Shown: piece after piece, positions 2,278 to 36,332 of the stretch
Layout: the number at the start of each line of letters is the position of its first letter
How positions within the stretch are numbered: position 1 is the first letter of the stretch
Assembly (NCBI GenBank): GCA_031387975.1
Contig: JANNDV010000008.1
Span: 1-64,000, forward strand
Length of the DNA: 64,000 bases
DNA from: Acaryochloridaceae cyanobacterium OTE_75_metabat_521
Lineage (GTDB): Bacteria; Cyanobacteriota; Cyanobacteriia; Thermosynechococcales; Thermosynechococcaceae
Direction: 5' to 3'
Program-made: the position numbers and the translations under genes
Notes under the pieces: generated by a model
Seen by the model: only the letters and a program-made list of their open reading frames with translations
Told to the model about the DNA's origin: nothing
Databases searched by the model: none

Positions 2278-2700
2278 ATGAAAAACCGTTGGATGGTGTG
2301 GATGATTGCCCCTAGCGTCTTGGGACTAACGCTAGGGCGAACAGAGATTGCTCAAGCAGGGGCTGAGCCTTGTTTGAGAAGTACGTGCGTTGCTGCTGTT
2401 GACTTTAGCGATGAAGCACCAGTCATATTTTTTGGCAAATCCTCAACGGATAGTGCGCTATTTAAGTTGAGCCTGACGCGGAAGCTTCCTGCTGCGATCG
2501 CTCAGTACAATACGAACTTTGCTGTTGCCCATGCACCGCGATCCGTCAATGGACTCATTGCCCTTCGCTATGAATCGCGCCCAACGCAGGTTGCCTCATC
2601 GACCCTTAGCATTCAATGTCTAACAGCGTCTGGTGAAGCGCATTGGATTGGTTGCAAACCCATCTCAAAAATTTTGGCATTGCGTCTTGTGCTCAAATAA
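2278..2700 (+). CDS. Hypothetical secreted protein (N-terminal signal peptide)
   Basis: 140-aa ORF with a hydrophobic N-terminus (MVWMIAPSVLGLTLG...AQA). No recognisable family. Confidence 0.4.
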   Translation: MKNRWMVWMIAPSVLGLTLGRTEIAQAGAEPCLRSTCVAAVDFSDEAPVIFFGKSSTDSALFKLSLTRKLPAAIAQYNTNFAVAHAPRSVNGLIALRYESRPTQVASSTLSIQCLTASGEAHWIGCKPISKILALRLVLK

Positions 2701-2782
2701 ACCAAAATTATTTGCCTGCTTTACCCCATATGAAAAAGCATGAAGTATTTAATTGTTACTTACAAAGTGAGGGAAAACGGTC

Positions 2783-3184
2783 GTGAATCGAAATATGATT
2801 AGTCCAATCCTAGGCGCTTTATTTTTAGGGTTACTCATCGCTCAAACTCCTTTTTCAGCGGCAAAAGCTCAGCCCATCCCAGAAACGATAATCGATCTGT
2901 TTCTCCGTTCAAATGTGCCAATTCCAGTTGCTGATTCTAAGACTCAGCAACTGTACGTGAGTATGAGAAATTGGCTAGGGTCTTATCAAGGTGTACGAAG
3001 AGTAGGAAACGAATACCTTGCTACGTTTAAGTATGCTTTACTTCCAGTGGTAGTTCAACTCAATAGCAGTGGGCAAATTGAGGGTATCGGTACAGGCTGT
3101 CCTCGTTCTGAGTCGCTCTCGTTGCGTCAGGCTCCAAATAATCTGAGGCAGGCATGGTCAAAATGCACCTCTCTTAAACAGTAG
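2783..3184 (+). CDS. Hypothetical secreted protein
   Basis: 133-aa ORF with a signal-peptide-like N-terminus (ILGALFLGLLIAQTPFSAAKA). An RBS-like GGGAAAACGG lies upstream. Confidence 0.4.
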   Translation: MNRNMISPILGALFLGLLIAQTPFSAAKAQPIPETIIDLFLRSNVPIPVADSKTQQLYVSMRNWLGSYQGVRRVGNEYLATFKYALLPVVVQLNSSGQIEGIGTGCPRSESLSLRQAPNNLRQAWSKCTSLKQ

Positions 3185-3517
3185 CAAAAGCAGCTGACAT
3201 TGCAACCTTCTCAGTCTTAGTTAGTATCCTAGAGTTTGTGCCAGTCTTAAAATGAAAACTCTAGAACGCCTGCACATCTGAAAACCAAGAAGTTAATGGG
3301 ATTCAGTTACAAAAATCTATGGACATTCTCACAAGCACTGTAGCTGGAGGCAAACATATCCAATTTAATCCACTCATTACAACCTAGAGAATGTGATCGC
3401 CCATCAGCCACCAACGCATCTGCCGTTATGGCGATCGCCTACTTTTGAAACTGCGATCGCGCTGAGATCATGATGGTGTAGAGAGGGCGATCGCCGACAA
3501 AAAAATCCAATACCATA

Positions 3518-3823
3518 TCAGGCTGCTTTTTTATCCACCTCAACCCGAACATTCATTCCTGCACGGGATAGCATCTGAACCAGCTTATCGATACTAAACC
3601 GCTCAATGTCGCCATTCATTAAGTCGCTAATCCGAGGTTGCGTTTCGCCAAAGAACAACGCAGCCTTCTTCTGTGTCCATCCCTGAGCCTTGATAAAACG
3701 CCTAATATTCAAGATCAGGTCAGCCCTGATCTTGAGATTCAATGCTTCCTCTGGCTCAAAGCCTAGATCCTCAAATACATTTTTGCTGCCCTGTGTAACC
3801 TCTAGAGCCTTTGTTTGTATCAT
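3518..3823 (-). CDS. higA: HigA-like antitoxin (XRE-family HTH, addiction module antidote)
   Basis: 101 aa. LKIRADLILNIRRFIKAQGWTQKKAALFFGETQPRISDLMNG is a classic HigA/XRE HTH. It lies immediately downstream of a small toxin-like ORF on the same strand. Confidence 0.75.
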   Translation of the reverse strand: MIQTKALEVTQGSKNVFEDLGFEPEEALNLKIRADLILNIRRFIKAQGWTQKKAALFFGETQPRISDLMNGDIERFSIDKLVQMLSRAGMNVRVEVDKKAA

Positions 3824-3897
3824 TTGCCATTACTCCTTCTATTCAAATTTCCGATATTCCAACATTTGCTGATATCGCCTTTGCCCAGTTTCAATAT

Positions 3898-4173
3898 CTA
3901 GCCTTGAAGTCTTCCGAGTCTTTTTCCCAAATGCATGGAGAACATAAACCGCCTCCTTAAACCGTGCGACATAAAAATTCGATAAGCATCATCAGCCCGA
4001 ATCCGAATTTCCTCAACACCAGAACCCACAATGGACATTGGCTTAAAATCTGAAGGTTCCTCCCCACCCTGAATCAGACGAAGCTGAAACCCCGCCTTAC
4101 GACGAGCAGACTCTGGAAAGTCTGACAAATCTTCAAGAGATGAACTCATCCAACAAATTGGCTTATTGGTCAT
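3898..4173 (-). CDS. higB: HigB-like toxin (RelE/ParE superfamily, phage Gp49-like)
   Basis: 91 aa. The toxin-first arrangement with a downstream HTH antitoxin is typical of HigBA. The motif IRIRADDAYRIF resembles the Gp49/HigB core. The C-terminal tail is atypical and may be degenerate. Confidence 0.55.
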   Translation of the reverse strand: MTNKPICWMSSSLEDLSDFPESARRKAGFQLRLIQGGEEPSDFKPMSIVGSGVEEIRIRADDAYRIFMSHGLRRRFMFSMHLGKRLGRLQG

Positions 4174-4430
4174 ATCTCATTATATATCTAATTTGGCATA
4201 TTTCCCAAGCCGCTACAAATTGCCAATTGTTCCTCAACTAGTCTCACTCACCAAAATAAAAGCGTAAAATTCAAGTGACGGGCAGATATAAGGTTAAATC
4301 TGAAGCAATTACCCTACAAATTCCAGATCCCCTCTACCAACGCCTAGCAAACACAGCCCAAGCCACCCATCGTCCCATCGAAGACGTTGTCCTCCATTTC
4401 GACGAAAGGGTTTCTTGAATTGTTGGTCGA

Positions 4431-5550
4431 TTATTCCCCAACCGCCGCGACCTGATTTTCCTTTCGTAGATAGGCTTCAATAAAGGGGTCTAATTCACCA
4501 TCCATAACATTTTCAATTGCGGTGGTTTCTACGCCCGTCCGCAGGTCTTTCACCATTTGGTAGGGGTGAAAAACATAGTTGCGGATTTGGGTGCCCCAAG
4601 CTGCCTCAACAATATCGCCGCGAATATCCGCAATTTCGCGGGCGCGCTGCTCTTGCGCCACAATCAGCAGCTTGGCCTTCAAAATGACCAGGGCTTTCTC
4701 TTTGTTTTGGAGCTGCGATCGCTCTTGGGTACAGCGCACTGCCAACCCCGTCGGCAGGTGAACAATCCGTACCGCCGTCTCGACCTTATTGACGTTTTGA
4801 CCGCCCTTACCCCCAGCGCGAGTCGTGGTAATTTCTAAATCTTTATCAGGGATATTTAGCTCCACGCCGTGGTCTAGTTCTGGCATCACCTCAACGCCAG
4901 CAAAACTGGTTTGGCGCTTGCCGTTGGCGTTAAAGGGCGAAATGCGAACCAGTCGGTGCGTCCCTTTCTCAGCCTTTAGGTAGCCGTAGGCATAGAGACC
5001 AGAGATTTCAAGGGTAACGGATTTAAGACCCGCCTCATCCCCCTCAGAAATTTCGGCTAACTGTACCTTATAGCCCTGCTTTTCGGCCCAGCGCGTATAC
5101 ATTCTCAGCAGCATTTCTGCCCAGTCTTGGGCATCGGTTCCACCTGCGCCTGCATTAATGGTGAGGACTGCGCCACCTTTGTCGTAAATGCCTGACAAAA
5201 GCTGCTGAAGCTCCCACTGATCGAGCTGGTGTGCTAACTGCTTGAGGCTTGTTTGGGCTTCGTTGAGTAAACCTGAATCATCCTCAAGCTCTAATAGTTC
5301 TAAGACCGTCTTTGCATCTTCTACTGTGGTGCGCCAACGCTGTAGGCCATCTAGATGCGCTTTGAGTTCGTTGAGAGCCTGAAGCGCGGTTTGTGCCGTA
5401 GCCTGGTTGTCCCAAAAGCTGGGCTGGGCGGCAACTTGCTCTAAGTCAGAAATTTTTGCATTAAGTGCAGGAACGTCAAAGATACTCCTGGGTTTTACCC
5501 AGGCGCTCAGACAACAGCTCAATATCTCGTTTTAAATCAACAACATCCAT
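4431..5550 (-). CDS. prfB: Peptide chain release factor 2, with programmed +1 ribosomal frameshift
   Basis: The body has the GGQ motif ([18 protein letters not shown]) and the SPF region. The short upstream frame [24 protein letters not shown] ends at CTT TGA C (minus strand, + coordinates 5475-5481). An internal SD AGGAG lies upstream, matching the canonical RF2 autoregulatory frameshift. The ORF track shows only the downstream frame, 4431..5522. Confidence 0.9.
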
Positions 5551-21923: not shown

Positions 21924-22160
21924 TCAATCGGTTCCTAACAATTTAAAAGGGCGCAGCCCAGAACAGACCTATACCCACTGGGGAATTGAAAGATTGCTCT
22001 ACGACTTGGATGCCACAGAATCTTTGAGCAATCGAAGAATCATTTCAGACACAAGCCTTAATGTACCGTGATCGGCTCAAATGTTCTACCGTGAGCCGCT
22101 AGTTTTTAGCAAACGTTAAGTTCATAAGCAACAATTGGGTAAGACACGCTGATTTCTCTC

Positions 22161-22856
22161 TCAATTGCTAACGCTCATTTCTTCAGCACGAGTCCCTTCA
22201 TATCCAAAAAATCTAAGTCCTTTGATCCCTGCTTCCTCAAGCGTTTCTTTAGCAGTAGGTGAGACAAAAAGAGCGGTTGTTGCTCTATCTGTAAGTCTAA
22301 ATATGGGTGGAAATCCACCAACTGGTTCCCTCAAAACAAGCTTTGGAATATAGGTGTAGACAGGATCCTCATTAAATTTAAATTCAGTCCGGTCATAGTC
22401 AATAACATCCAAATGCTCTAAGAGTTGTAAGCCTACATAATCCTCATTAAATTCCCCCATTAGAGGAACTGTTTGTCCCTTTAAGTTATACCTGCCTTGG
22501 TCTAGAAATCTGTAGTCATAAATTCGAGTTGGGATTGCTTTATAGGAAAAACTTCCTACAGAATGCAACGTGTACAGCATCCGCTTGGAAATCAAAGTCC
22601 AACCTAAGTCACATTCGAGGAAGTCAGTTTGATGAAACCGATCAAAAAAACCTAACCACTCGACAGGCTCAGGCTCATCGTAAGGTTTAGAAAAGGTAAG
22701 TTCATCACCAGAAAATCTACTTTGCCTATGAGAATTGTAAATCAACACGTCACAACTCTCTGCTTCGCCGTACTCTCGATCTAGCGGATCTTCAGGTAGT
22801 TCATGAATGCGATCAAGTTGTTGGAAGACTATATAAGCAACAATCGAATCAGTCAT
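22161..22856 (-). CDS. Putative polymorphic-toxin immunity protein, paralog 3 of a tandem array
   Basis: 231 aa. It is paralogous to 22866..23429 and 23658..24371. Shared blocks are IVAY, EDPLDREYGEAE, ISKRMLY.L.S.G.F..K, EFNEDYV.LQLLEH.D.IDYD, LVL.EPVGGFPPIFRL and EEAGIKGL.F. It sits downstream of and co-oriented with the candidate toxin gene. Confidence 0.5.
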   Translation of the reverse strand: MTDSIVAYIVFQQLDRIHELPEDPLDREYGEAESCDVLIYNSHRQSRFSGDELTFSKPYDEPEPVEWLGFFDRFHQTDFLECDLGWTLISKRMLYTLHSVGSFSYKAIPTRIYDYRFLDQGRYNLKGQTVPLMGEFNEDYVGLQLLEHLDVIDYDRTEFKFNEDPVYTYIPKLVLREPVGGFPPIFRLTDRATTALFVSPTAKETLEEAGIKGLRFFGYEGTRAEEMSVSN

Positions 22857-22865
22857 TTTTACCTC

Positions 22866-23429
22866 TTAGCTAGCCGTACTGACTTCTTGAGCGCGGGTGC
22901 CTTCATACTCAGTAAATCTAAGCCCTTTGATACCTGCTTCTTCTAAAGCTTCTTTCGTAGCAGAGGAAACGAATAACGAACCATCTTCACCGATTCTATC
23001 GAGTCTAAAAATCGGTGGAAACCCGCCAACTGGCTCTTTTAAGACAAGATTTATAACGTAGGGGGGCATATTCGGATTTAGGCGGAATCTGAAGTCAGAC
23101 TGGTCGTAATCGATACCATCTACATGTTCTAAAAGCTGCAATCCAACATAGTCTTCATTAAATTCACCTCCAGGTGCAATAGAAGGCCCTTCATAGTCAT
23201 GTTTCCCATAGCTTCCTTTACCTTGGTCTTGAAAGCTATAGTCATAAATCCGGGTAGATATTGCCTTATGGGGAAACTCACCTACAGAGCGCAATACATA
23301 GAGCATTCGTTTAGAAATAATCGGTTCAAAGCCATCGGTGCTCAAGAAATCTGTTTGATGAGGCAAACGATCCAGAAAACCTACAAAGTCAATAGGTTCT
23401 GGCCCAGGATAGGGAATCGTGTCACTCAT
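22866..23429 (-). CDS. Putative immunity protein paralog 2, N-terminally truncated by an upstream in-frame TAG
   Basis: 187 aa. The reading frame continues upstream in-frame to ATG 23583-23585, encoding MSYSIVAYK...EDPLDREYSEAEDYD, the same N-terminal module as paralogs 1 and 3. It is interrupted by TAG at 23436-23438. That stop aligns with a Trp codon in paralog 1, consistent with TGG to TAG. The ORF as called reinitiates two codons downstream. Confidence 0.5.
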   Translation of the reverse strand: MSDTIPYPGPEPIDFVGFLDRLPHQTDFLSTDGFEPIISKRMLYVLRSVGEFPHKAISTRIYDYSFQDQGKGSYGKHDYEGPSIAPGGEFNEDYVGLQLLEHVDGIDYDQSDFRFRLNPNMPPYVINLVLKEPVGGFPPIFRLDRIGEDGSLFVSSATKEALEEAGIKGLRFTEYEGTRAQEVSTAS

Positions 23430-23657
23430 GCCGCCCTAAGACAGACCTCTTGGTCTCGTAGGTTTATGAGTAATCGCATCATAATCTTCCGCCTCACTAT
23501 ACTCTCTATCCAGCGGGTCTTCAGGTAGAGAATCTAGGCGTTCGAGATTATGACCTATTTTGTAAGCAACAATCGAGTAAGACATAATGATCTCTTCTTC
23601 TAAGCAACTTCAGAATGATCTAGAGACTCACCCTGAGCAAGGCTGCCTATTTGATAT

Positions 23658-24371
23658 CTAACTAGCTGTACTGGCTTCTTGAGCGCGAGTGCCTTCGTAC
23701 TCAAGAAAATCGAGTCCTTTGATGCCTGCTTCTTCAAGGGCTTCTTTCGCAGCAGGGGAAACGAATAACGAACCATCTTCACCGATTCTATCGAGTCTAA
23801 AAATAGGTGGAAACCCGCCGACGGGTTCCTTTAAGACAAGACTTGTAACGTAGGGGGGCATATTCGGATTTAGGCGGAATCTGAATTCAGACTGATCGTA
23901 GTCAATGCCATCCACATGTTCTAGAAGCTGCAAACTCACGTAATCTTCATTAAATTCACCCGCTGGTGGAGTCGTATTCCCCTCATAATGATTTTTTCTA
24001 CCTTGATCTTGAAAGCCATAATCATAAATCCGCGTAGAAATTACCTTATGCGGAAACTCACCAAGAGAACGCAGTACGTACAGCATTCGCTTGGAGATGA
24101 TTGGCTTTAAGTCAAGATCATCTACATACAAATAGTCCGTTTGATGAAGTCGCTCATCCAGAAACCCAACAAAATCAATAGGTTCAGGGCCAGGGTAAGG
24201 TATCGTTCCTCTCGTACCGCTCCAAGGAATTTCCTTTGGCTCTGTAGGTTTATAAACCCAGGCATTATATGTTTCTGCTTCGCCATACTCCCTGTCCATT
24301 GGGTCTTCAGCTAGTGAATCTAGAAAGTCAAGACTAGGAGTCATTTTATAGGCAACTATTGGGTAAGACAC
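23658..24371 (-). CDS. Putative immunity protein paralog 1 (full length), translationally coupled to upstream toxin gene
   Basis: 237 aa. The GTG start lies 14 nt after the toxin stop, with AAGGAG in between. It is paralogous to the two downstream genes. Confidence 0.5.
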   Translation of the reverse strand: MSYPIVAYKMTPSLDFLDSLAEDPMDREYGEAETYNAWVYKPTEPKEIPWSGTRGTIPYPGPEPIDFVGFLDERLHQTDYLYVDDLDLKPIISKRMLYVLRSLGEFPHKVISTRIYDYGFQDQGRKNHYEGNTTPPAGEFNEDYVSLQLLEHVDGIDYDQSEFRFRLNPNMPPYVTSLVLKEPVGGFPPIFRLDRIGEDGSLFVSPAAKEALEEAGIKGLDFLEYEGTRAQEASTAS

Positions 24372-24385
24372 GCTGATTTCTCCTT

Positions 24386-26599
24386 TTACGCAACTTCAGA
24401 ATTATCTGAATTCTCGCCCTGAGCAAGACTCCCAGTTGGTCTGGTTATCTTCTTGAGGTCTTTATAAAGCGCTTTATCCTCATTCATTAATCCATCCCTC
24501 ATCCGTGTAAGTGATTCATCCCATACAGCCTTTATTTCCTCCTTCGTCATTTGCGGTATGAATTTTTCATTTTTACCAGAAATCCCTTTTGCCTCTCTAA
24601 TCGCGGTGATTTCATCGTCAACCACTGTCTGCATCAACGCATCAAACTTCTTGTGCTGAGTATTGTGAACAAAATCAGAGAACTGCACATTCCGATGCGC
24701 TTGCCTTGCCGCCTTGAGACTATCGAGACTATTCGCCAACTCAATGAGATTCATTGCATCGTCAGGATTCACCGCACCCAACCGTAACGCCCGCTGCCCA
24801 AAGGGCGTTGAGCGCAGCATATTGTCCGCATACAGGTGATGCACCTGAGAACCCTTTCCCAAAATCTTTCCAGGCTCCCCTGGAATCGTCTCTACATTTT
24901 TGGGATATGCGCCATCATCGACAATGCGATACTCACCCTTCGCCCCCATCTGAATTTTGCCCTTACTATCCACCTTCAAAGGCACCATCGTTTTATCAGA
25001 ACCCGACATATAAACCACCTCTCGAAACGTGCCATCCTTGAGCGGAATCTTGCCATATAGATAGCCCTCCGGCAGGTTATTCGGGTCAACCTTCGTCCCA
25101 ATAAACGACTTCACCGACCCTGCATTGGCATAATCGCCCAGCACATGCTTCTTTGCCTTCGCTGTCTTCAGCGCCTCTTCCGTCGTCATCTGCGCCGTCT
25201 GCCCTCTCATCTCACTACGCGACAGCTTACCAACCCCCACAATCTCCTGAGACGGCCTCAGCACCTCCATCACCTCATCCACCATTGATTGGGGCACCCC
25301 CTTCGCCTTCATCAAAAGTTCTCGCGCCCTCTCCAAACCTGCATCTCCCTGACGCGCCAAACTCATAACCTGCACCCACGTCTGGCGTAACACCTGCGCA
25401 CCTTGCACACTCCCCTGACCCACCAGCCGCTCCAGACCCCGAATTACCCCAACCTCAGCCCCCACATCCAGACCCGCCAGCGCCACATTCGCATAGCCCA
25501 TCACCAAATTAAACCGCGCCTGCTCCAGTGACTGACTTGTGAGCTGCCCTGCACCCCCACGCCCCGACTGTGCCGCCGCATTCAACAGCATCAAATCCGG
25601 TACATCATAGGCAAACGTCGCGCTCATCGTCCCCGCACCCACCATTCGCAGTAATGCAGCACCCCCGCGCAACTGCGGAATAAACGACGCCAGAAATAAC
25701 CCACCCCCAACGGCCTGGCCTAACTGCGACAAGCGCTCCTTATTGCCACGCTCATCCTCTAACCAACTCGTCAGATCCTTGCGTTGTGCTTGGTTATGAC
25801 CTTCCTTCAACAGCTCACTCGTCACCACAGAATCAAACAGCAGCGCTGTCGATGGATCCTTTGTTACCTCAGCGCTAAGCTTGTTGATATTGCCTCGTAT
25901 CCCATCAAACTCTTCGGGCAAACGCCTCTGCACACGCTTAATATCTTCAGGATTCGCCCCCATCTCATTCTTCACCGCAGACAGCGCCGGATACAAATAT
26001 TCGAGCGATACCTGCATCTGTTTGGCAACCGCAATGCGCTCCCCTAGCCGCTTCTTCTGCTCACTCAATGCCAACAGTCGCTTATTTTTAAAGCTGTTTT
26101 GCCTCTCTTGAGGGGTTGCCATTAAACCCATTCCATCTGGGATATCGCTGAGGTTATGAATCTCAGCCGTCGTAAATTCGAGCTGCTGCAGTAAATTCGC
26201 ATGTTGAGCCTGAAACTCACGGCGTTGTGCTGCCACCTGCCAGAGGCGTGACCAGCGATCGCTCTTAGGGTTGTTGTCCTGAAGGTATTGCGTTTGTTCT
26301 GCATTGAGACGGTCTTTGTTGGCCTTCAGCAACCCCTGTGCTCTGGCGGCAACATTGGCTTCAAACTGATGGTGAATCTGTGTTTGGGGCTGTTTACTCT
26401 TCGGTTCTGTCTCAGAAGGCTCGGATTCTTTCGCTTTTGCATCTGCACGCAGTTTCGCCTTTCGCTTTTCTTCTTCGCGAATCTTGGCTTTTCGTTTTTC
26501 TTCTTCTAGACGTAGTTTCTTCTGACGCTCTTGTTCAGCTCGGATTTTGAGTTGACGTTCTTGTTCTTCGCGACGTGCTTTCTGCGGGTCTACAAACAT
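24386..26599 (-). CDS. Candidate polymorphic toxin: KR/E-rich coiled-coil N-terminus, Gly/Ala-rich central region, C-terminal xHH-type (HNH/EndoVII-like) nuclease-like domain
   Basis: 737 aa. The C-terminal ~150 aa contain GSQVHHLYADN and a downstream HNTQHKK motif. Both motifs are shared with the orphan toxin fragment at 32736..33800. Three paralogous small genes follow on the same strand, and a copy of this gene's last ~50 nt reappears within that array. Confidence 0.5.
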   Translation of the reverse strand: MFVDPQKARREEQERQLKIRAEQERQKKLRLEEEKRKAKIREEEKRKAKLRADAKAKESEPSETEPKSKQPQTQIHHQFEANVAARAQGLLKANKDRLNAEQTQYLQDNNPKSDRWSRLWQVAAQRREFQAQHANLLQQLEFTTAEIHNLSDIPDGMGLMATPQERQNSFKNKRLLALSEQKKRLGERIAVAKQMQVSLEYLYPALSAVKNEMGANPEDIKRVQRRLPEEFDGIRGNINKLSAEVTKDPSTALLFDSVVTSELLKEGHNQAQRKDLTSWLEDERGNKERLSQLGQAVGGGLFLASFIPQLRGGAALLRMVGAGTMSATFAYDVPDLMLLNAAAQSGRGGAGQLTSQSLEQARFNLVMGYANVALAGLDVGAEVGVIRGLERLVGQGSVQGAQVLRQTWVQVMSLARQGDAGLERARELLMKAKGVPQSMVDEVMEVLRPSQEIVGVGKLSRSEMRGQTAQMTTEEALKTAKAKKHVLGDYANAGSVKSFIGTKVDPNNLPEGYLYGKIPLKDGTFREVVYMSGSDKTMVPLKVDSKGKIQMGAKGEYRIVDDGAYPKNVETIPGEPGKILGKGSQVHHLYADNMLRSTPFGQRALRLGAVNPDDAMNLIELANSLDSLKAARQAHRNVQFSDFVHNTQHKKFDALMQTVVDDEITAIREAKGISGKNEKFIPQMTKEEIKAVWDESLTRMRDGLMNEDKALYKDLKKITRPTGSLAQGENSDNSEVA

Positions 26600-26868
26600 C
26601 GTGCCAGCCTTAGTCTGTCGTCAACCGTTTATGATTTGGAAAATTAGCCCCATTTTAGTCCTACTCTCCTCGAAAAGCTTAGCGCCTTTAGTTTTATTTT
26701 TTAAGGGGGGTGCGCTATTTTCCTGGCATCCTCTGTTACTGTCAAAATCTGAATGTGTAATTGCTGCAACGGTTCAGTCCGAATACATAAGGTTCAGCGC
26801 TAAGCTTAGGATCTCAAACTGTAGCTTCAAATGAGCATTTTCCTTCACGTCTCTTTCCTTTAGGTGCC

Positions 26869-30586: not shown

Positions 30587-31084
30587 ATGTTCAGTCGTCT
30601 TTCTCAATGGGTTACAGTCAGCCTTCTGGTTTCTGGCACGGCGACAGGATTATTTGCTGCCGCTCCAGCAAGGGCTGAACTAGAGCAGGGGACAACTTTA
30701 GTGCTAGCTGCTCCGGCTCAAAATGTAGATATGCGAGGCTATGTGAAAGGAGCAGTGGCGCTTTTTAAGACCGTGGGCGATCGCGACAGTAATCAAAAGC
30801 GCTGCATGGGCTACGGATCTTTGACCCCAGACCACACGCTGCAAGTTTCGCAAAAAACGTCTCAGGTGACGCTTCAAGTTAGAAGCAAACAGCAGCAAGA
30901 CACAACGCTAGTGGTCGAAGGGCCAGACAATCGGCTGTACTGCTCCGATGATTCTTCTCAGGGCGGCAAAGAAGCAAGGCTGGTGCTAACAGACCTTAAA
31001 GCTGGAAACTATCGGGTCTGGATTGGCGCTTTTGAGCCAGGCGCAGGATTCCGATACACTCTTAATGTTAAATCTCAACCCTAA
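30587..31084 (+). CDS. Hypothetical secreted protein
   Basis: 165 aa. Signal peptide (LLVSGTATGLFAAAPARA). No family. Confidence 0.4.
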   Translation: MFSRLSQWVTVSLLVSGTATGLFAAAPARAELEQGTTLVLAAPAQNVDMRGYVKGAVALFKTVGDRDSNQKRCMGYGSLTPDHTLQVSQKTSQVTLQVRSKQQQDTTLVVEGPDNRLYCSDDSSQGGKEARLVLTDLKAGNYRVWIGAFEPGAGFRYTLNVKSQP

Positions 31085-31358
31085 GGTTTTCGGGATTCTC
31101 GATGATTTAGAACATCAACCCATATTCCAGTAACAATAGTTCGAGCAGAATTTTGGCAGGTTCTGAGGCTCAAACTTTTATCCAGCAATAAGCAGGATTT
31201 TTTGTCAGAGCTTTGTAAACCCATTCAGAAAACTGTCTATGGTATTGCCATAAGGATTTCAATGGAACGGATAATCACGATATCCTTATGTTGCAAGTTC
31301 GTCCGCTAACACGCAATTCGTCAAAAAAATAATATTTCTAAAGAAGAGATATTTAAAA

Positions 31359-32015
31359 ATGAGTGTTAAGTATAACTTTACGGGCTTAAAAAATATCTAT
31401 TTAGAGGCTCTCATACGAGCTGACCCAACATTAGTATTTGAGATAGTGCAAGGGCGTGGTCGATTTGTTTTTATGATGTTTTTCTCTAGCGAAGATAAAG
31501 AATCAAAAGATAGATTGTTCATTCAATTGAGGAATACAAAGGTATTCTTAGAGCTGAAGGTGTATGGCAGTCACAGAAACGGTGACTTCCTAATTTATTT
31601 GGATGACAGTAATCAACAAAAAATCATTAATGAGTTGCAGCTTGAAAAAAGTGGAGAAGGATTTTTCTTTGACAACTTTTTGTCACAATTGAATCAGCAA
31701 ATTCCAATTAAGCTAACTCTTCAAACCAAATTAGTGAAGGTTAGGGAAGTCTGGCCAGAAGTGGGACATCGCTTGAGTAGCGTAGTTGATGAAGCAGACA
31801 AAAATATCTTAATGGGTATCAAGAAATTACCGGAGGGCAAGAAACCTCAGGATAAAACCCTCAGAAAGCTATATATTTACACTAATGGTCATGCTGATGT
31901 CATTACGAATCTGATTTCTTCACTCAAAGCTGCAAGAGTAACCCTAGCATGGACTCATAGGCAAGATGTTGCAGAAAAAAGTCTCTCAGAGATCATGGCT
32001 ATGATAAATTCTTGA
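31359..32015 (+). CDS. Hypothetical protein in AT-rich island
   Basis: 218 aa. Its AT-rich composition contrasts with the flanking chromosome. No family. Confidence 0.35.
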   Translation: MSVKYNFTGLKNIYLEALIRADPTLVFEIVQGRGRFVFMMFFSSEDKESKDRLFIQLRNTKVFLELKVYGSHRNGDFLIYLDDSNQQKIINELQLEKSGEGFFFDNFLSQLNQQIPIKLTLQTKLVKVREVWPEVGHRLSSVVDEADKNILMGIKKLPEGKKPQDKTLRKLYIYTNGHADVITNLISSLKAARVTLAWTHRQDVAEKSLSEIMAMINS

Positions 32016-32200
32016 CACTATGTTAAATTTTTCAAAACTTAGGTCTAATAACCCCACTAAGGGCTGCTCAAAATACCTTGCCATTTAGTCTATTTGATAT
32101 TTTTACTAACGCTCTTTATGACGGATCGTTAATCTAGTCTCTTTTCTAACTCAACTTCATATCTATTCTTTGTCTGTATTTTCTTGACTTCTTTTATACT

Positions 32201-32734
32201 TCAAAAGAAGGCTTCTAACCCAAGCTCTTTCGCTGAATCTTTTGCACTCGGTACTGATTGTACATATCTTTCAACAGCAGCAGCCATGTATTCCTCGGAA
32301 GGCCAATACCCTTCGACAAAAGTAACAATTGATTCTGCTACTTCAATTCCTGATTCTTCGTCTAACTTTGGACCTGTAGAAATCTTAAGTACATGACTAA
32401 TAAAAGTGTCATCTCTAATATCAAGATGTGGATCATTTTCCAGCATCCAGCTAAAAAGACGTTCCCAACTTAGACTAAGAAGATCTATATTCTGATATTT
32501 ATCTTTGTAAATTAATTCTGAGTCACTAATTTCTATGGCAAGGCATATTTCGGTGTTAGTATTATAGTCTATACGAAGCCTACTGAAATCATAGTAATCT
32601 GACAAATATAAATTGTCTGAATAAGAAGACTTTGGTTCTCCAAATATAGATATGACTTCCTGGCGAGCCATTCCTAATTTGATTAGTCCTACTCCTTTGC
32701 CTAATTCAATTTCATATCTATTTTTTGCTTGCAT
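32201..32734 (-). CDS. Putative immunity protein of degenerate toxin module
   Basis: The ATG at 32732-32734 lies 1 nt after the stop of the upstream toxin-like ORF, with AAGGAG 8 nt upstream, as in the 24.4-kb locus. A truncated paralogous N-terminus (QTKNRYEVELEKRLD*) lies just downstream at ~32150-32200. The ORF track's longer version (to 32800) overlaps the toxin ORF. Confidence 0.4.
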   Translation of the reverse strand: MQAKNRYEIELGKGVGLIKLGMARQEVISIFGEPKSSYSDNLYLSDYYDFSRLRIDYNTNTEICLAIEISDSELIYKDKYQNIDLLSLSWERLFSWMLENDPHLDIRDDTFISHVLKISTGPKLDEESGIEVAESIVTFVEGYWPSEEYMAAAVERYVQSVPSAKDSAKELGLEAFF

Positions 32735-32735
32735 T

Positions 32736-33800
32736 TTATTGACTCCTTCTATATTTTTTGAGCATTTGTCGAATTGAAATATCGTACAAGCCTGGAGCAA
32801 CTCTATTTACATCTTTTATATCCTCGATGATTGCTTCATCTGTCTTGCCATGATCTATCAATGATTTCTGGTTGGCGCGATAACGAACAGCTCTAGGGCC
32901 TCTTCCATTGCTGGCAGTTTCCTTATGATGTTCGGTATACATCCAAATTGCAGAACCTTGAGCCGTCGGAAGCAGATTCACAGAGTCTGCTGGCATGTGA
33001 TGCACCTGACCGCCTACCGTATTGGCTCTCACCTCGCCATGCGTCCCACCCAGTTTTGCCTCAATAATTTTTATTCCTGGAGGAGCATTCACTAGACCGT
33101 TATTCACCCACTGCACTAAATCCGCATCCGGTATGGCTACCCTCATGCCATACCCGCACTGATTGGCAATAATTGACTGTCGCTCTCACTCTGGAAGTTT
33201 GCCTTTAATAAACTTTTGCGCTTTGGCCTCTTCCACCTTGCTTGATGGCGGCATAATCGGCTCAACTTCATACACCTGCTTTTTTAGCCCTTGGTGCTTT
33301 TTCTCGTCTCCGCGATACATTCCGTCGAATAAGGCGGAATGACCGTTTGGGTCAACAATTAAGGTTGGGTTATCGGATCCGGTTAGAGCTTTCACTATCA
33401 TCGATTTAGGTTGTCCACCATTGCCAATCCCCAACTGCATGACCGTACAGAAGCGATCATTTCTGAAACTGCCATCGGCGTATTTGAGTGCTTCTTTATG
33501 CTTACTGTTCTCTAGTCCTTTAATTTGTTCTGCCGTCAAATTCTTGAATGCTTTTTTCTCAGCTTCGCTGCCGATGGTTTCGCCCGTTAGGGGATTCTTA
33601 CCCATCTTCTGCATGTTGTAAATTTTCTTAAAATCCTCTTGGGTCATCCAAGGAATTTTAGGGATAGGAAAGGGAAAGGGAAGACCGCGCGGAATCGGAA
33701 CAGCCTGGGCAATCTGTTGAGGTTTAGCTTTTGGAATTTGCTTATGAAAGTCATTGTTACGATTGTTATCTGGGCGTTTGCCGGAATCGAAAACCATCAC
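32736..33800 (-). pseudogene. Orphan toxin C-terminal module of the same xHH family as 24386..26599, interrupted by an in-frame TGA
   Basis: ORFs 33186..33800 and 32736..33146 are in the same frame, separated only by TGA at 33186-33188 (…KGKLPE*ERQSII…). The downstream part contains GGQVHHMPADS and TEHHKET. These are homologous to GSQVHHLYADN and HNTQHKK of the 737-aa protein. There is no long N-terminal delivery region. Confidence 0.5.
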
Positions 33801-34083
33801 CTAAGCCCTGGATAAATTGCCTGAGTAATAGTTTGACAAAAAATGGTGCTTTTGAGCTACTGAATACCCAAGTTGATGTTCCGATATTTTTGCCCCCTTG
33901 AAATGAACACCCTAGAATGACGATACAGCAAGCGTCTTTGAGTCCTTTAGGTTAGCATCTGCGATTATTAAGCAAGTAAAAATCACAATGCTGGCGGTAA
34001 AATAACTTCAGCGGTTCAGGTCACTATCCTTAGTCTGTCTGGCTCCTGCATATACTGCAATAGAGCGTTATGCTATTTCATGC

Positions 34084-34731
34084 TTATTTTGCAAGTCCAT
34101 CCGGTGATGCAGATGATGGTAGTGGTGTTGAAGTAGAGACTGATTTAGGCGCAACCGCCGCCTTGACCTGCCATTCCGATAAAGGGCGATTCACTGCATC
34201 TAGAAACCCTGTGGGCACTAGAACAACCTCTATTTTTTTTGTCGCAGCAGCAGAACCTGGATCAATTTGGGCATACACCGCGCTCTGATTAAAATTTTGG
34301 ATGCCCAACATGATTTGGTGAGTTTTTTGGTCTTTAAGCTTTAGAACAAGGGTTGCGGTGGGCTTGTCTAGACCAAATTCTTTGAGCTGAGCTGGCTCAA
34401 CCTGAAGGGTGCGCTCACTGGTGCCTGTTGCTAAAAGATTTAGCAACAAGGTGACAGCGCCTTCATCGGCAGCACCAGCCTTAGGAGCCTTGAGCTGCCA
34501 GCCTTTATCCGTTTTTTCTAGCTTTAGACTTTGGTTTTTAGCTTCAATAGTGAGCTGCGTAACGTCGGCTTCTTTGAGCGCGAAGATCGGTTTCGCTGCC
34601 TTTTTTGCCTCAGAAGTTTGAGGTTGCCCAGAGCGGGATTGATCCCACGCATAGATGCCGATCGCCGATAAGAGGGCGATCGCCAGCATTACCACCGTGC
34701 TTAATTTCAGTTTCATCGGCGTTTCCACCAT
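34084..34731 (-). CDS. DUF4340-like protein (GldG-associated)
   Basis: 215 aa with an N-terminal TM anchor. It is the last gene of an ABC ATPase / ABC-2 permease / GldG operon, the position DUF4340 proteins typically occupy in cyanobacteria. Confidence 0.5.
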   Translation of the reverse strand: MVETPMKLKLSTVVMLAIALLSAIGIYAWDQSRSGQPQTSEAKKAAKPIFALKEADVTQLTIEAKNQSLKLEKTDKGWQLKAPKAGAADEGAVTLLLNLLATGTSERTLQVEPAQLKEFGLDKPTATLVLKLKDQKTHQIMLGIQNFNQSAVYAQIDPGSAAATKKIEVVLVPTGFLDAVNRPLSEWQVKAAVAPKSVSTSTPLPSSASPDGLAK

Positions 34732-36332
34732 AGGTAAGCGGCGGAACCAAAGGCGGATAGAGGTAGAAATCCTAGACCCACCAGCGTTAAAATCCGCCAG
34801 TTGGTTGGGTTTAGCTCAATGCGACGATCTTTGAGTTCTTTGGGACGAATAGAGAGGCTCGGGTCGTCGGCACCGCTGCCCAGCCACGTAACTGCGTTCA
34901 GAAATAGGTCGCTATTGAGGACTTGAGGATTGGCTACGGTGGCAAAGTCAGAATCTCCAATCACCACCATCTTGGCCTGTACTTTTGTCGGAGATGGCTT
35001 TGCGGCAGCGCCAGCTTTGGCCTTATCGGTCACAGCAGGCGTCGTCTCAAAGGTGCGGGTAATGGCAACACCCACGGTTAAAGGTCCCTTGCGATCGCGG
35101 GCTGCATCAAACTGAAGTTTCGGCTGATTAGAGTCGGCCTCTGCCCAGCTTTGAGGGCTGGTCTTGAGCAATTCTGTAACCTGCTCCTCGGCAGAAGGCG
35201 GCTGAACCGTGATGGCCTGTACCAGCGGAAAGAACGATGGCCCTTGTCCAAAATCTTTGGTGATGGGGTGTGCGCCATACTGCGTCACGAGGGGGATGGC
35301 AGGCCCTAAGCCCAAGAGCTGACCAGAGCCAGAGGCATCGACCACCACGCGGTTGTCGAGGGTAACACCCCAGTCTTTGAGCAGTGGGTCAAGCCCCGTC
35401 TTGACGGCGGGGTCTAGCATTAGCATGAGCGCTCTACCCTGCTTGAGATAGTCCTGAAGCAGTTTAACTTCACCCTCTAAATACACGCGCTTTGGTCCTG
35501 TAATCACCAGCACGTTTGCGTCGGTCGGAATCTGCTTTTGCTCTAGCAAATTAAGCACATTAACGTTAAAGTCTCGTTTTTTTAGCTCTGTAATTGCGCC
35601 GTCAATATTGCCCTGTCCGCCATTGATGGGCGCTTCGCCGTGCCCCTGAAGAATGTACGCATTGGCTTTGCGATCGCGCAGTAGAGAAGCCACCGCAGGG
35701 GTGAGGTTGGTTTCGCTGAGGTCGCCTTCTAAGGTTTTGGTGCGATCGCCTGTTTCCAAAACAACCTCACCCAGGGCGCGCACCTTATACTTTTCGGCAA
35801 GTGTCGGCTGGGCTTGGGGGTCAATAAATTCAAAGCTGAGGCGATCGGGGTTTTGGCGACGGTACTGCTCGAGTAGACCCTGCTGAACGGGGGTCGGCTG
35901 ATTGCTAAAAACGCGCACCTTCAGGGGCTGCTTGAGGGTTTTGATGAGCTGTTTGGTTTGGGGCGCTAAAGAAAACTGCTGGTTCTCGGTGAAGTCAATT
36001 TGGCCTGGAATCCGCACCGCCAAAAAATTGAGTCCGCCCAAAATGACCACCACTGCAATTGTGGTGAGTAGCGCGTTGGTACCCGTCTGGACAGAGCGCT
36101 GCCGCCACCAAGGAGACGCGGAGTCACTGGCATTCATCCAGCGCAGAGAGAGCCAAAGGGCGATCGCCACCAGCCCTGCTACCACTAACCCAATCCCCAC
36201 GGGCGACCAAGCGCCAGAGATTAAACTCGCGCTCCCCCCCGCAATCATTAGCCCAAGACCCACCCAAAAAAGTGGATTGACCAGCTTTGGATTGAGATTT
36301 AGCTTTGGCTTTGCCAACAAACGTTTCACCAC
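34713..36332 (-). CDS. GldG-like ABC-transporter auxiliary component
   Basis: 539 aa. An N-terminal TM pair and a large periplasmic domain match the ABC-type uncharacterized transport system auxiliary component (GldG family) architecture. It overlaps the downstream gene. Confidence 0.65.
   Translation of the reverse strand: MVKRLLAKPKLNLNPKLVNPLFWVGLGLMIAGGSASLISGAWSPVGIGLVVAGLVAIALWLSLRWMNASDSASPWWRQRSVQTGTNALLTTIAVVVILGGLNFLAVRIPGQIDFTENQQFSLAPQTKQLIKTLKQPLKVRVFSNQPTPVQQGLLEQYRRQNPDRLSFEFIDPQAQPTLAEKYKVRALGEVVLETGDRTKTLEGDLSETNLTPAVASLLRDRKANAYILQGHGEAPINGGQGNIDGAITELKKRDFNVNVLNLLEQKQIPTDANVLVITGPKRVYLEGEVKLLQDYLKQGRALMLMLDPAVKTGLDPLLKDWGVTLDNRVVVDASGSGQLLGLGPAIPLVTQYGAHPITKDFGQGPSFFPLVQAITVQPPSAEEQVTELLKTSPQSWAEADSNQPKLQFDAARDRKGPLTVGVAITRTFETTPAVTDKAKAGAAAKPSPTKVQAKMVVIGDSDFATVANPQVLNSDLFLNAVTWLGSGADDPSLSIRPKELKDRRIELNPTNWRILTLVGLGFLPLSAFGSAAYLWWKRR

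Follow-up and report, generated by a model that had tools for sequence, protein, structure and literature searches.

Polymorphic toxin systems (Zhang et al. 2012, PMC3482391) combine exchangeable C-terminal tips with arrays of immunity genes: each toxin gene is directly followed by its cognate immunity gene, and extra immunity genes occur in tandem or in degraded form. One of the toxin families described in that study, Tox-REase-5, carries the signature Y, FDG, EAK, Y, Q, W, and its effectors include TseT/PA3907, partnered by TsiT/PA3908 (PDB 7DYM, 9OZ0; PF15648). TseN, a type VI secretion system (T6SS) effector of Acidovorax citrulli, degrades DNA, depends on one essential His, and is sterically blocked by TsiN; no close homologs were reported for it (PMC12574953). 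Here, we describe a toxin–immunity module encoded on the minus strand of a 64-kb stretch of cyanobacterial DNA (positions 1 to 64,000 of contig JANNDV010000008.1, Acaryochloridaceae cyanobacterium OTE_75_metabat_521; hereafter the window). The locus is ordinary in kind and, like polymorphic toxin loci, has its immunity gene directly downstream of the toxin gene and the remains of an extra one beyond it; unlike classic polymorphic toxins, however, the cyanobacterial proteins are short, stand-alone, and without a recognised trafficking domain. The toxin and immunity families themselves are undescribed.

Our preferred interpretation, to which we assign a probability of about 80%, is that the module sits on an acquired 3-kb island, and that its toxin gene was recently broken by a TGG-to-TGA change while the immunity gene was kept. 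The toxin–immunity family is uncharacterised and mostly cyanobacterial. The locus would provide a natural, one-base-old example of the step from armed to immune-only, and since both alleles are present in sister datasets, the fitness effect of toxin loss with immunity retained is directly testable.

A recent nonsense mutation in the toxin gene

The original prediction, an earlier annotation of the window by a model, had proposed a toxin gene of approximately 354 codons split by a single in-frame TGA. Translation of 33830..32733 bears this out: the minus-strand open reading frames (ORFs) 33797..33189 and 33185..32739 lie in one frame with the TGA as the single stop between them, and homologs cover both halves. 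The two frames had been called as 33186..33800 (204 aa, from a GTG) and 32736..33146; because homologs begin with MVFDSGKRP, the true start is the ATG at 33797, and the reconstructed protein has 353 residues. A search with the joined sequence returned 37 homologous proteins, the full-length ones being unnamed metagenome proteins of 353–372 aa without Pfam domains, with 100% query coverage and up to 79% identity. At the position of the TGA, all 20 aligned homologs have Trp, within the motif E-W-E/Q-R-Q, and the codon is TGG in 9/9 homolog loci, the nearest of which read GAG TGG GAG where the window reads GAG TGA GAG.

An intact allele was found within the 90% cluster of the toxin's N-terminal fragment. 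This 353-aa protein (P0188), from the Logan assembly of run SRR20217195, is identical to the window reconstruction except for a W at position 204. The contig that encodes it (L153) has the same host context as the window, and across the ~2.3 kb compared its island differs at one base, window position 33186, while 18 further differences all fall in the host flank. TGA terminates 10 of the 34 long ORFs in the window as well as the immunity gene itself and is therefore a normal stop here; recoding of the TGA as Trp or selenocysteine was rejected on these grounds. With a single disabling change at a conserved codon and an intact allele in a near-identical genome, the gene has the hallmarks of a recent pseudogene. 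The intact L153 allele, the one-base difference, and the invariant Trp thus identify the stop as a nonsense mutation that arose very recently by a G-to-A change, or else as a polymorphism within the population, and not as long-term decay or recoding, in agreement with the recent inactivation that had been proposed.

L153 has TGG in an otherwise identical island, which could be taken to mean that the organism has an intact gene and that the TGA arose in sequencing or assembly. We consider this very improbable, as the TGA is present in the window, in a 203-aa fragment from an NCBI assembly, and in a separately assembled Logan contig of run SRR20217213 (L001; 100% identity over 3496 nt), and the 18 host-flank differences mark L153 as a different strain or population. 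Separately, 16 of these 18 differences are packed into 70 nt (34737–34806) where a 215-aa and a 539-aa host gene overlap, a cluster that may reflect either recombination over a short tract or an artefact of assembly.

A horizontally acquired island

The toxin and immunity genes lie on an island (Table 1) whose place is empty in three related genomes (L012, L013, and L014): blastn synteny, with flanks at ~81–87% DNA identity, finds the empty sites between two convergent host genes. By its nearest matches the organism is a cyanobacterium near Acaryochloridaceae, Thermosynechococcaceae, and Altericista. As both the island and a second module of the window, the AHH/Imm11 module described below, are absent from relatives, both are insertions, and the island is a horizontally acquired insert of ~3 kb, as the original prediction had suggested on the basis of its composition. 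The compositional argument itself held only in part. Guanine-plus-cytosine (GC) content is 0.34–0.38 over 31000–33000 against ~0.50–0.55 in the flanks, with 0.35 for the immunity gene and 0.37 for orf218, a third island gene; the toxin gene, at 0.45, is mildly below the flanks, and the visible AT enrichment claimed for the whole of 31.1–33.9 kb is therefore slight there. An 18-nt inverted repeat tried as the island ends was rejected, being near chance expectation (estimated) and outside the real boundaries. A promoter and terminator scan gave no enrichment over shuffles, and neither the two toxin halves nor the immunity and orf218 proteins gained a useful assignment from Pfam, NCBIfam, or PADLOC.

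Table 1 Features of the island and copies of the palindromic element in related loci (positions are those of the window unless a locus is named)
Feature	Position	Strand	Description
Strain-specific island	31091..34143		47–103 bp of intergenic DNA instead in three related genomes
Toxin gene	32736..33797	minus	Pseudogene here; 353 codons, one TGA the sole interruption
In-frame TGA	33186..33188	minus	In place of the invariant Trp204 codon; changed base is window 33186
Middle domain of toxin	33063..33500	minus	Residues ~100–245; predicted restriction-endonuclease (PD-(D/E)xK) fold, Tox-REase-5-like
C-terminal toxin tip	32739..33071	minus	111 aa; GGxVHHMPA ... DHxxT; predicted TseN-like DNase fold; outside Pfam
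Immunity gene	32201..32734	minus	177 aa, intact; AAGGAG-N8-ATG, start 1 nt past the toxin TAA
Stub	32134..32201	minus	Last ~6 toxin codons and first ~16 immunity codons, ATG changed to ATA
orf218	31359..32015	plus	Third island gene, convergent with the toxin–immunity pair; widely transferred family
Palindromic element, right copy	34031..34123	minus	Covariance model 74.5 bits; degenerate
Palindromic element, left copy	31233..31327	minus	Covariance model 54.6 bits; same orientation as right copy; degenerate
Element copies in L007	5771-5866 and 7653-7749
Element copies in L003	5772-5867 and 4936-5032		Also beside an unrelated 224-aa ORF
Element copies in L002, L008, L152	L002 7770-7866; L008 5759-5854; L152 5679-5771

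Conserved pairing of the toxin with an immunity gene

The downstream partner of the toxin is conserved. In 12/12 distinct loci (the window and its sister L153, L002, L003, representing the same place as L004–L006, L007, L008, L009, L010, representing the same place as L011, L150, L151, L152, and L029), an ORF of 145–182 aa lies 3' of the toxin at a distance of 0–26 nt or overlapping it, with 24–54% identity to the product of window 32204..32734. The other neighbours of the pair differ among these loci, and there are no secretion genes among them. A cognate immunity gene directly downstream, as in polymorphic toxin systems, is found even where the toxin tip is carried by a different protein: in L029, the gene after that of an Rhs protein ending in the tip encodes an immunity-family protein (hhalign 90.8%, hmmsearch E 6e-9), which ties the immunity protein to the tip and not to the middle domain. 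The toxin–immunity module proposed for this locus is therefore upheld by the conserved partner in every locus and by the occurrence of the tip on other scaffolds. We infer that the 177-aa protein is the cognate immunity protein, and that it would act by binding and blocking the C-terminal nuclease.

In three loci, the immunity gene is followed by a second, tandem paralog; the L150 and L151 paralogs are intact, whereas that of L152 is broken. Given these paralogs, the stub past the immunity gene of the window, which ends in ..QTKNRYEVELEKRLD* and had been recognised as a paralog fragment, is best read as the remnant of a second tandem immunity gene. The repeat associated with it is real, although longer and less similar than the 48-nt near-identical repeat first reported: 32134–32201 and 32689–32756 share 68 nt at 78% identity, with 83% in the best 48-nt window, and the second of the reported coordinates was ~10 nt out of register. 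DNA similarity to L002 falls at ~32904, ~55 codons before the toxin stop, where the megablast alignment (84.6%) ends and blastn continues more weakly into the immunity gene. In L008, TerB_C and BrxC/BrxD-like genes are located ~1.3 kb upstream of the toxin–immunity pair (2582–4734), a neighbourhood that is possibly a defence-island context.

Domain architecture of the toxin

To describe the intact protein, an AlphaFold model was made for the homolog P0003 (29-sequence alignment; pLDDT 84, pTM 0.79). Residues 1–42 are disordered in this model; a helical segment then leads into a middle domain of alpha/beta type, and the chain ends in a small C-terminal domain. No signal peptide was found, and residues 1–42 contain no hydrophobic stretch. 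The middle domain has the order helix, three strands, helix, strand, as in the restriction-endonuclease fold, with F157-D158-G159, E179, K200, and W204 invariant and E177 and Q207 nearly so; the TGA falls in its core helix, directly after K200. FDG, W, and Q are shared with the Tox-REase-5 signature, whereas the toxin has E-V-E in place of EAK, with an invariant Lys in the next helix. BamHI, for its part, has an acidic residue where the motif has Lys. From the model and these residues, the middle domain is predicted to adopt a restriction-endonuclease fold most like that of Tox-REase-5 effectors. It differs from TseT in being internal and followed by a second predicted nuclease domain, and the partner differs from TsiT in not being of the Imm52 type: the Tox-REase-5 model PF15648 matched neither the toxin halves nor family members in the Pfam scan, and Imm52 had no match in the downstream 177-aa protein.

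The C-terminal tip, in which the motifs GGQVHHMPADS and TEHHKET noted earlier are both present, also occurs apart from the full-length toxin. When 1.84 billion representatives were searched with the profile, 1487 matched at E ≤ 1e-3 and 910 at E ≤ 1e-10, most of them covering only the last ~105 positions and located at the extreme C-terminus of proteins of 100–4375 aa (median 1 residue after the domain in the 182 hit segments examined). The tip is attached to haemagglutinin-repeat (Fil_haemagg_2), Rhs, and PT-HINT proteins; since it ends all of these, it shows the combination of one C-terminal domain with different N-terminal regions that characterises polymorphic toxins. Judging from this distribution, the C-terminal ~105 aa are a genuine, widespread modular toxin domain. 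No Pfam model touches it at E ≤ 10 (29 + 10 family members scanned), and the analysis defines a large family of toxin C-terminal domains (~1500 clusters at 50% identity) and an immunity family, neither with a Pfam model. Four distant relatives of 533–564 aa (P0047, P0049, P0050, and P0068) have the endonuclease-fold domain and the tip but continue for another ~200 aa at the C-terminus, the tip being internal.

Structurally, the sole neighbour of the C-terminal domain is the DNase domain of TseN (PDB 9J9W), and the tip is predicted to share this fold, in which case DNase activity would be expected. Sequence identity between the two is 9%, however, and the family profile has no match to 9J9W in the PDB sequence search. 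TseN also differs in having a FIX motif, VgrG/PAAR loading, and nucleolar localisation signals, whereas the toxin has another N-terminal architecture and no T6SS context. PDB sequence searches with the full-length and C-terminal profiles gave no match, and Foldseek with the whole toxin model found no significant match in the PDB. The predicted fold link would give relatives to TseN, which the 2025 publication of this DNase described as having none. Finally, the order of elements in the tip, strand (VHH), strand (AIWM), and helix (DHxxT), would fit a His-Me finger and may point to a very distant link to HNH-type nucleases.

Consequences of the truncation and role of the intact module

The single G-to-A transition at Trp204 would cut the protein inside the core of the predicted endonuclease fold and before any part of the C-terminal nuclease. 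The truncated product of 203 aa is without the last strand of the endonuclease core and without the tip; most simply, then, the cell would have kept its immunity and lost its weapon.

A number of observations weigh against the preferred interpretation. Toxin activity and partner binding in the family are properties that we infer; Pfam, NCBIfam, PADLOC, and PDB-sequence searches gave no match for the toxin; and it has no trafficking or secretion domain in Pfam and NCBIfam scans, with no secretion genes beside any of the 12 loci. The immunity family gives weak BamE-like matches in 11/15 members (best E 5e-4) and BLIP-like PDB matches, a signal that offers a hint of compatibility with the alpha/beta description of TsiN. 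The NCBI assembly and run SRR20217213 are possibly not independent read sets. At the level of expression, UGA can be misread by tRNA-Trp through near-cognate decoding, and the ORF 3' of the TGA encodes the complete C-terminal domain in 136 aa from Met219 (ATG 33146, 39 nt past the stop).

The last two points raise the alternative of a partly active module, in which read-through of the UGA by tRNA-Trp or re-initiation at Met219 yields an attenuated allele against which immunity is still needed. The sole lesion being one UGA at a Trp codon, and the intact downstream ORF carrying a whole domain that forms a stand-alone tip on other scaffolds, would both suit it. We nonetheless regard it as quite unlikely: no recognisable ribosome-binding site precedes ATG 33146, and the mutation is too recent for the intact downstream frame to inform on selection. 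The statement in the original prediction that the cell keeps an immunity gene against a toxin it no longer makes can accordingly be maintained for the immunity gene, which is intact, while the loss of the toxin stays unproven in view of the Met219 ORF and UGA misreading.

What the intact module does is a distinct question, and an answer other than an inter-bacterial weapon would be compatible with the gene being a pseudogene here. The absence of signal peptide, trafficking domain, and secretion genes in the 12 contexts, together with the copy near TerB_C and BrxC/BrxD-like genes, would fit an intracellular toxin–antitoxin or abortive-infection system, and Tox-REase-5 toxins are reported to occur as toxin–antitoxin systems or as T6SS effectors (bioRxiv 10.1101/835710). 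On the other hand, secreted Rhs and CdiA-like scaffolds make use of the C-terminal domain together with its immunity family, polymorphic toxin loci typically contain tandem immunity paralogs, and PADLOC gave no match. We therefore consider an intracellular role unlikely, and retain an inter-bacterial toxin as the preferred reading. With two predicted nuclease-fold domains and no known export signal in the stand-alone cyanobacterial form, its delivery in cyanobacteria becomes a question.

A palindromic element at the island ends

Just inside both ends of the island lie two copies of an element (Table 1), on the same strand and 2.8 kb apart. The 64-kb window contains no copies other than these two minus-strand ones, against a chance expectation of 0.00 for the 21-nt core; nhmmer extends them to a wider element of ~155 nt (34140–33986 and 31340–31184). 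The element is also found upstream of the toxin in L002, L003, L007, L008, and L152, and L007 has a further copy past the immunity gene. At the core of the element is an imperfect palindrome of ~95 nt in which 78.5% of cells pair, while slid controls reach 34–44%; both partners are altered in seven pairs, none of 500 shuffles attains the observed covariation score, and the L007 copies have RNAfold z values of −5.2 and −3.0.

This palindrome resembles integron attC sites. Its outer arms in the best copies, GTCTAAC or GTTTAAC ... GTTAGAC, correspond to the attC R-box consensus RYYYAAC ... GTTRRRY, exactly in both L007 copies and with one mismatch in the L003 copies; the L002 and L008 palindromes keep GTTAGAC but their 5' box is degenerate, as are both copies of the window. 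Bases bulge from one arm of the stem, the unpaired spacer is asymmetric, and the loop is large (bulges and spacer read by eye), and attC features including an unpaired spacer and extrahelical bases were described by Nivina et al. 2016 (PMC5027507). CALIN elements lack an integrase and consist of at least two same-strand attC sites separated by less than 4 kb, and cyanobacteria carry integrons (Cury et al. 2016, PMC4889954); the two window copies, both on the minus strand, have this spacing, and two copies are likewise present in L003 and in L007. The bulges are on the 3' arm of the toxin-sense strand, which would therefore be the bottom strand and make the window plus strand the direction of the array. 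This direction agrees with the position of orf218, which starts ~30 nt past the left palindrome (19 nt past the wider element), and with that of the L003 ORF, which sits between two copies ~825 bp apart. That L003 ORF was tried as a relative of orf218 and rejected, as BLASTP finds no similarity.

Taken together, it is possible, and we propose it tentatively, that the toxin–immunity pair and orf218 are integron-type cassettes and the palindromes attC sites, degenerate here and canonical in relatives. The toxin–immunity pair would then lie in inverse orientation with its own promoter, and an array lacking an integrase would carry the immunity gene and its stand-alone, dual-nuclease toxin from genome to genome; toxin–immunity exchange in cyanobacteria would then, if the palindromes are indeed attC sites, have a vehicle in integron-like cassettes. 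Unlike in integron attC sites, however, ~60 nt beside the palindrome are also conserved, which speaks against cassettes. Alternatively, the palindrome may be a regulatory one carried with the upstream region of the module, or another small mobile repeat. Also counting against cassettes, tblastn with an approximate IntI1 query detected no integrase of the integron type in either the window or the loci, and the covariance model found no third copy between orf218 and the immunity gene. The model likewise found none in L009, L010, L150, L151, or the empty-site relatives; an Rfam search of the island gave no match, Rfam being without an attC model, and a metagenome scan with a degenerate 20-nt palindrome core returned chance matches only.

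The orf218 family itself is spread widely over Cyanobacteria and several gammaproteobacterial orders, with homologs at 60–74% identity in Methylobacter, Xanthomonas, Aeromonas, and Salinivibrio and at ~50% in Paenibacillus (Firmicutes), and it is absent from the other toxin loci. Copies ~44% identical lie on enterobacterial plasmids beside ArdC-like and PLD genes; as these settings are not integrons, they lend no support to the cassette idea.

Two further observations concern the right end of the island. In the host 215-aa gene (DUF4340 family; 34084–34140, minus strand), the last ~15 codons and the stop differ from those of relatives, the final ~8 codons and the stop being supplied by the palindromic element. 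A plus-strand ORF at 34070..34288, beginning with MLFHAYFASPSGDADD, is probably spurious, as it reads the element in reverse complement; a called 55-aa 'gene' of L007 contains this peptide too.

The AHH/Imm11 module in the same window

The window carries a second strain-specific insert (22121–26788), replaced by ~10 bp in L012 and L013 and not flanked by the palindromic element. It encodes a 737-aa AHH protein (24386..26599) followed by three Imm11 genes (22161..24371). As had been pointed out, the immunity gene described here, which starts 1 nt past the toxin stop, shows the same AAGGAG-N8 coupling as this module (there with GTG, at the 737-aa gene and the first Imm11 gene), and its product is unrelated to the 22–24-kb paralogs, the 177-aa sequence having no similarity to the Imm11 proteins of the window. 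The two modules differ in the domain families of both toxin and immunity protein, with no detectable homology between them.

The original prediction had gone further, describing the toxin as an orphan tip clearly related to the C-terminus of the 737-aa protein. On this reading, it would be an AHH-homologous domain displaced from a long effector. The observation behind this is sound, in that an HH dipeptide in a G-x-Q-V-H-H-hydrophobic-x-A-D context occurs in both and the 737-aa protein is a genuine AHH protein with three Imm11 genes. Alignment of the two C-termini nevertheless contradicts it: BLASTP of the tip against the 737-aa C-terminus gives a 12-residue match (E 0.039, single pair), hhalign of the tip profile against the AHH region gives a probability of 2.2%, and AHH (PF14412) or HNH-type Pfam models match neither the window halves at E ≤ 1 nor any of the 39 (29 + 10) family members at E ≤ 10. 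Such a lack of significant similarity is the outcome that the original prediction had itself named as refuting the kinship, and the evidence on folds favours TseN-like and restriction-endonuclease folds over HNH. Nor is the toxin an orphan tip, since the N-terminal 245 residues are conserved together with the tip: the homologs are full-length with a conserved start and middle domain, the immunity proteins of the two modules are unrelated, and nothing like a longer parent gene was found in the window or related loci. We therefore give this origin hardly any credence. As a separate observation, the N-termini are loosely alike among MFVDPQKARREEQERQ in the 737-aa protein (start 26599), MVFDSGKRP in the toxin family (start 33797), and MAYADWEEERRRK/MEYADWEEEQRRK in the distant members P0028, P0034, and P0036, a likeness that may reflect a shared export signal or chance.

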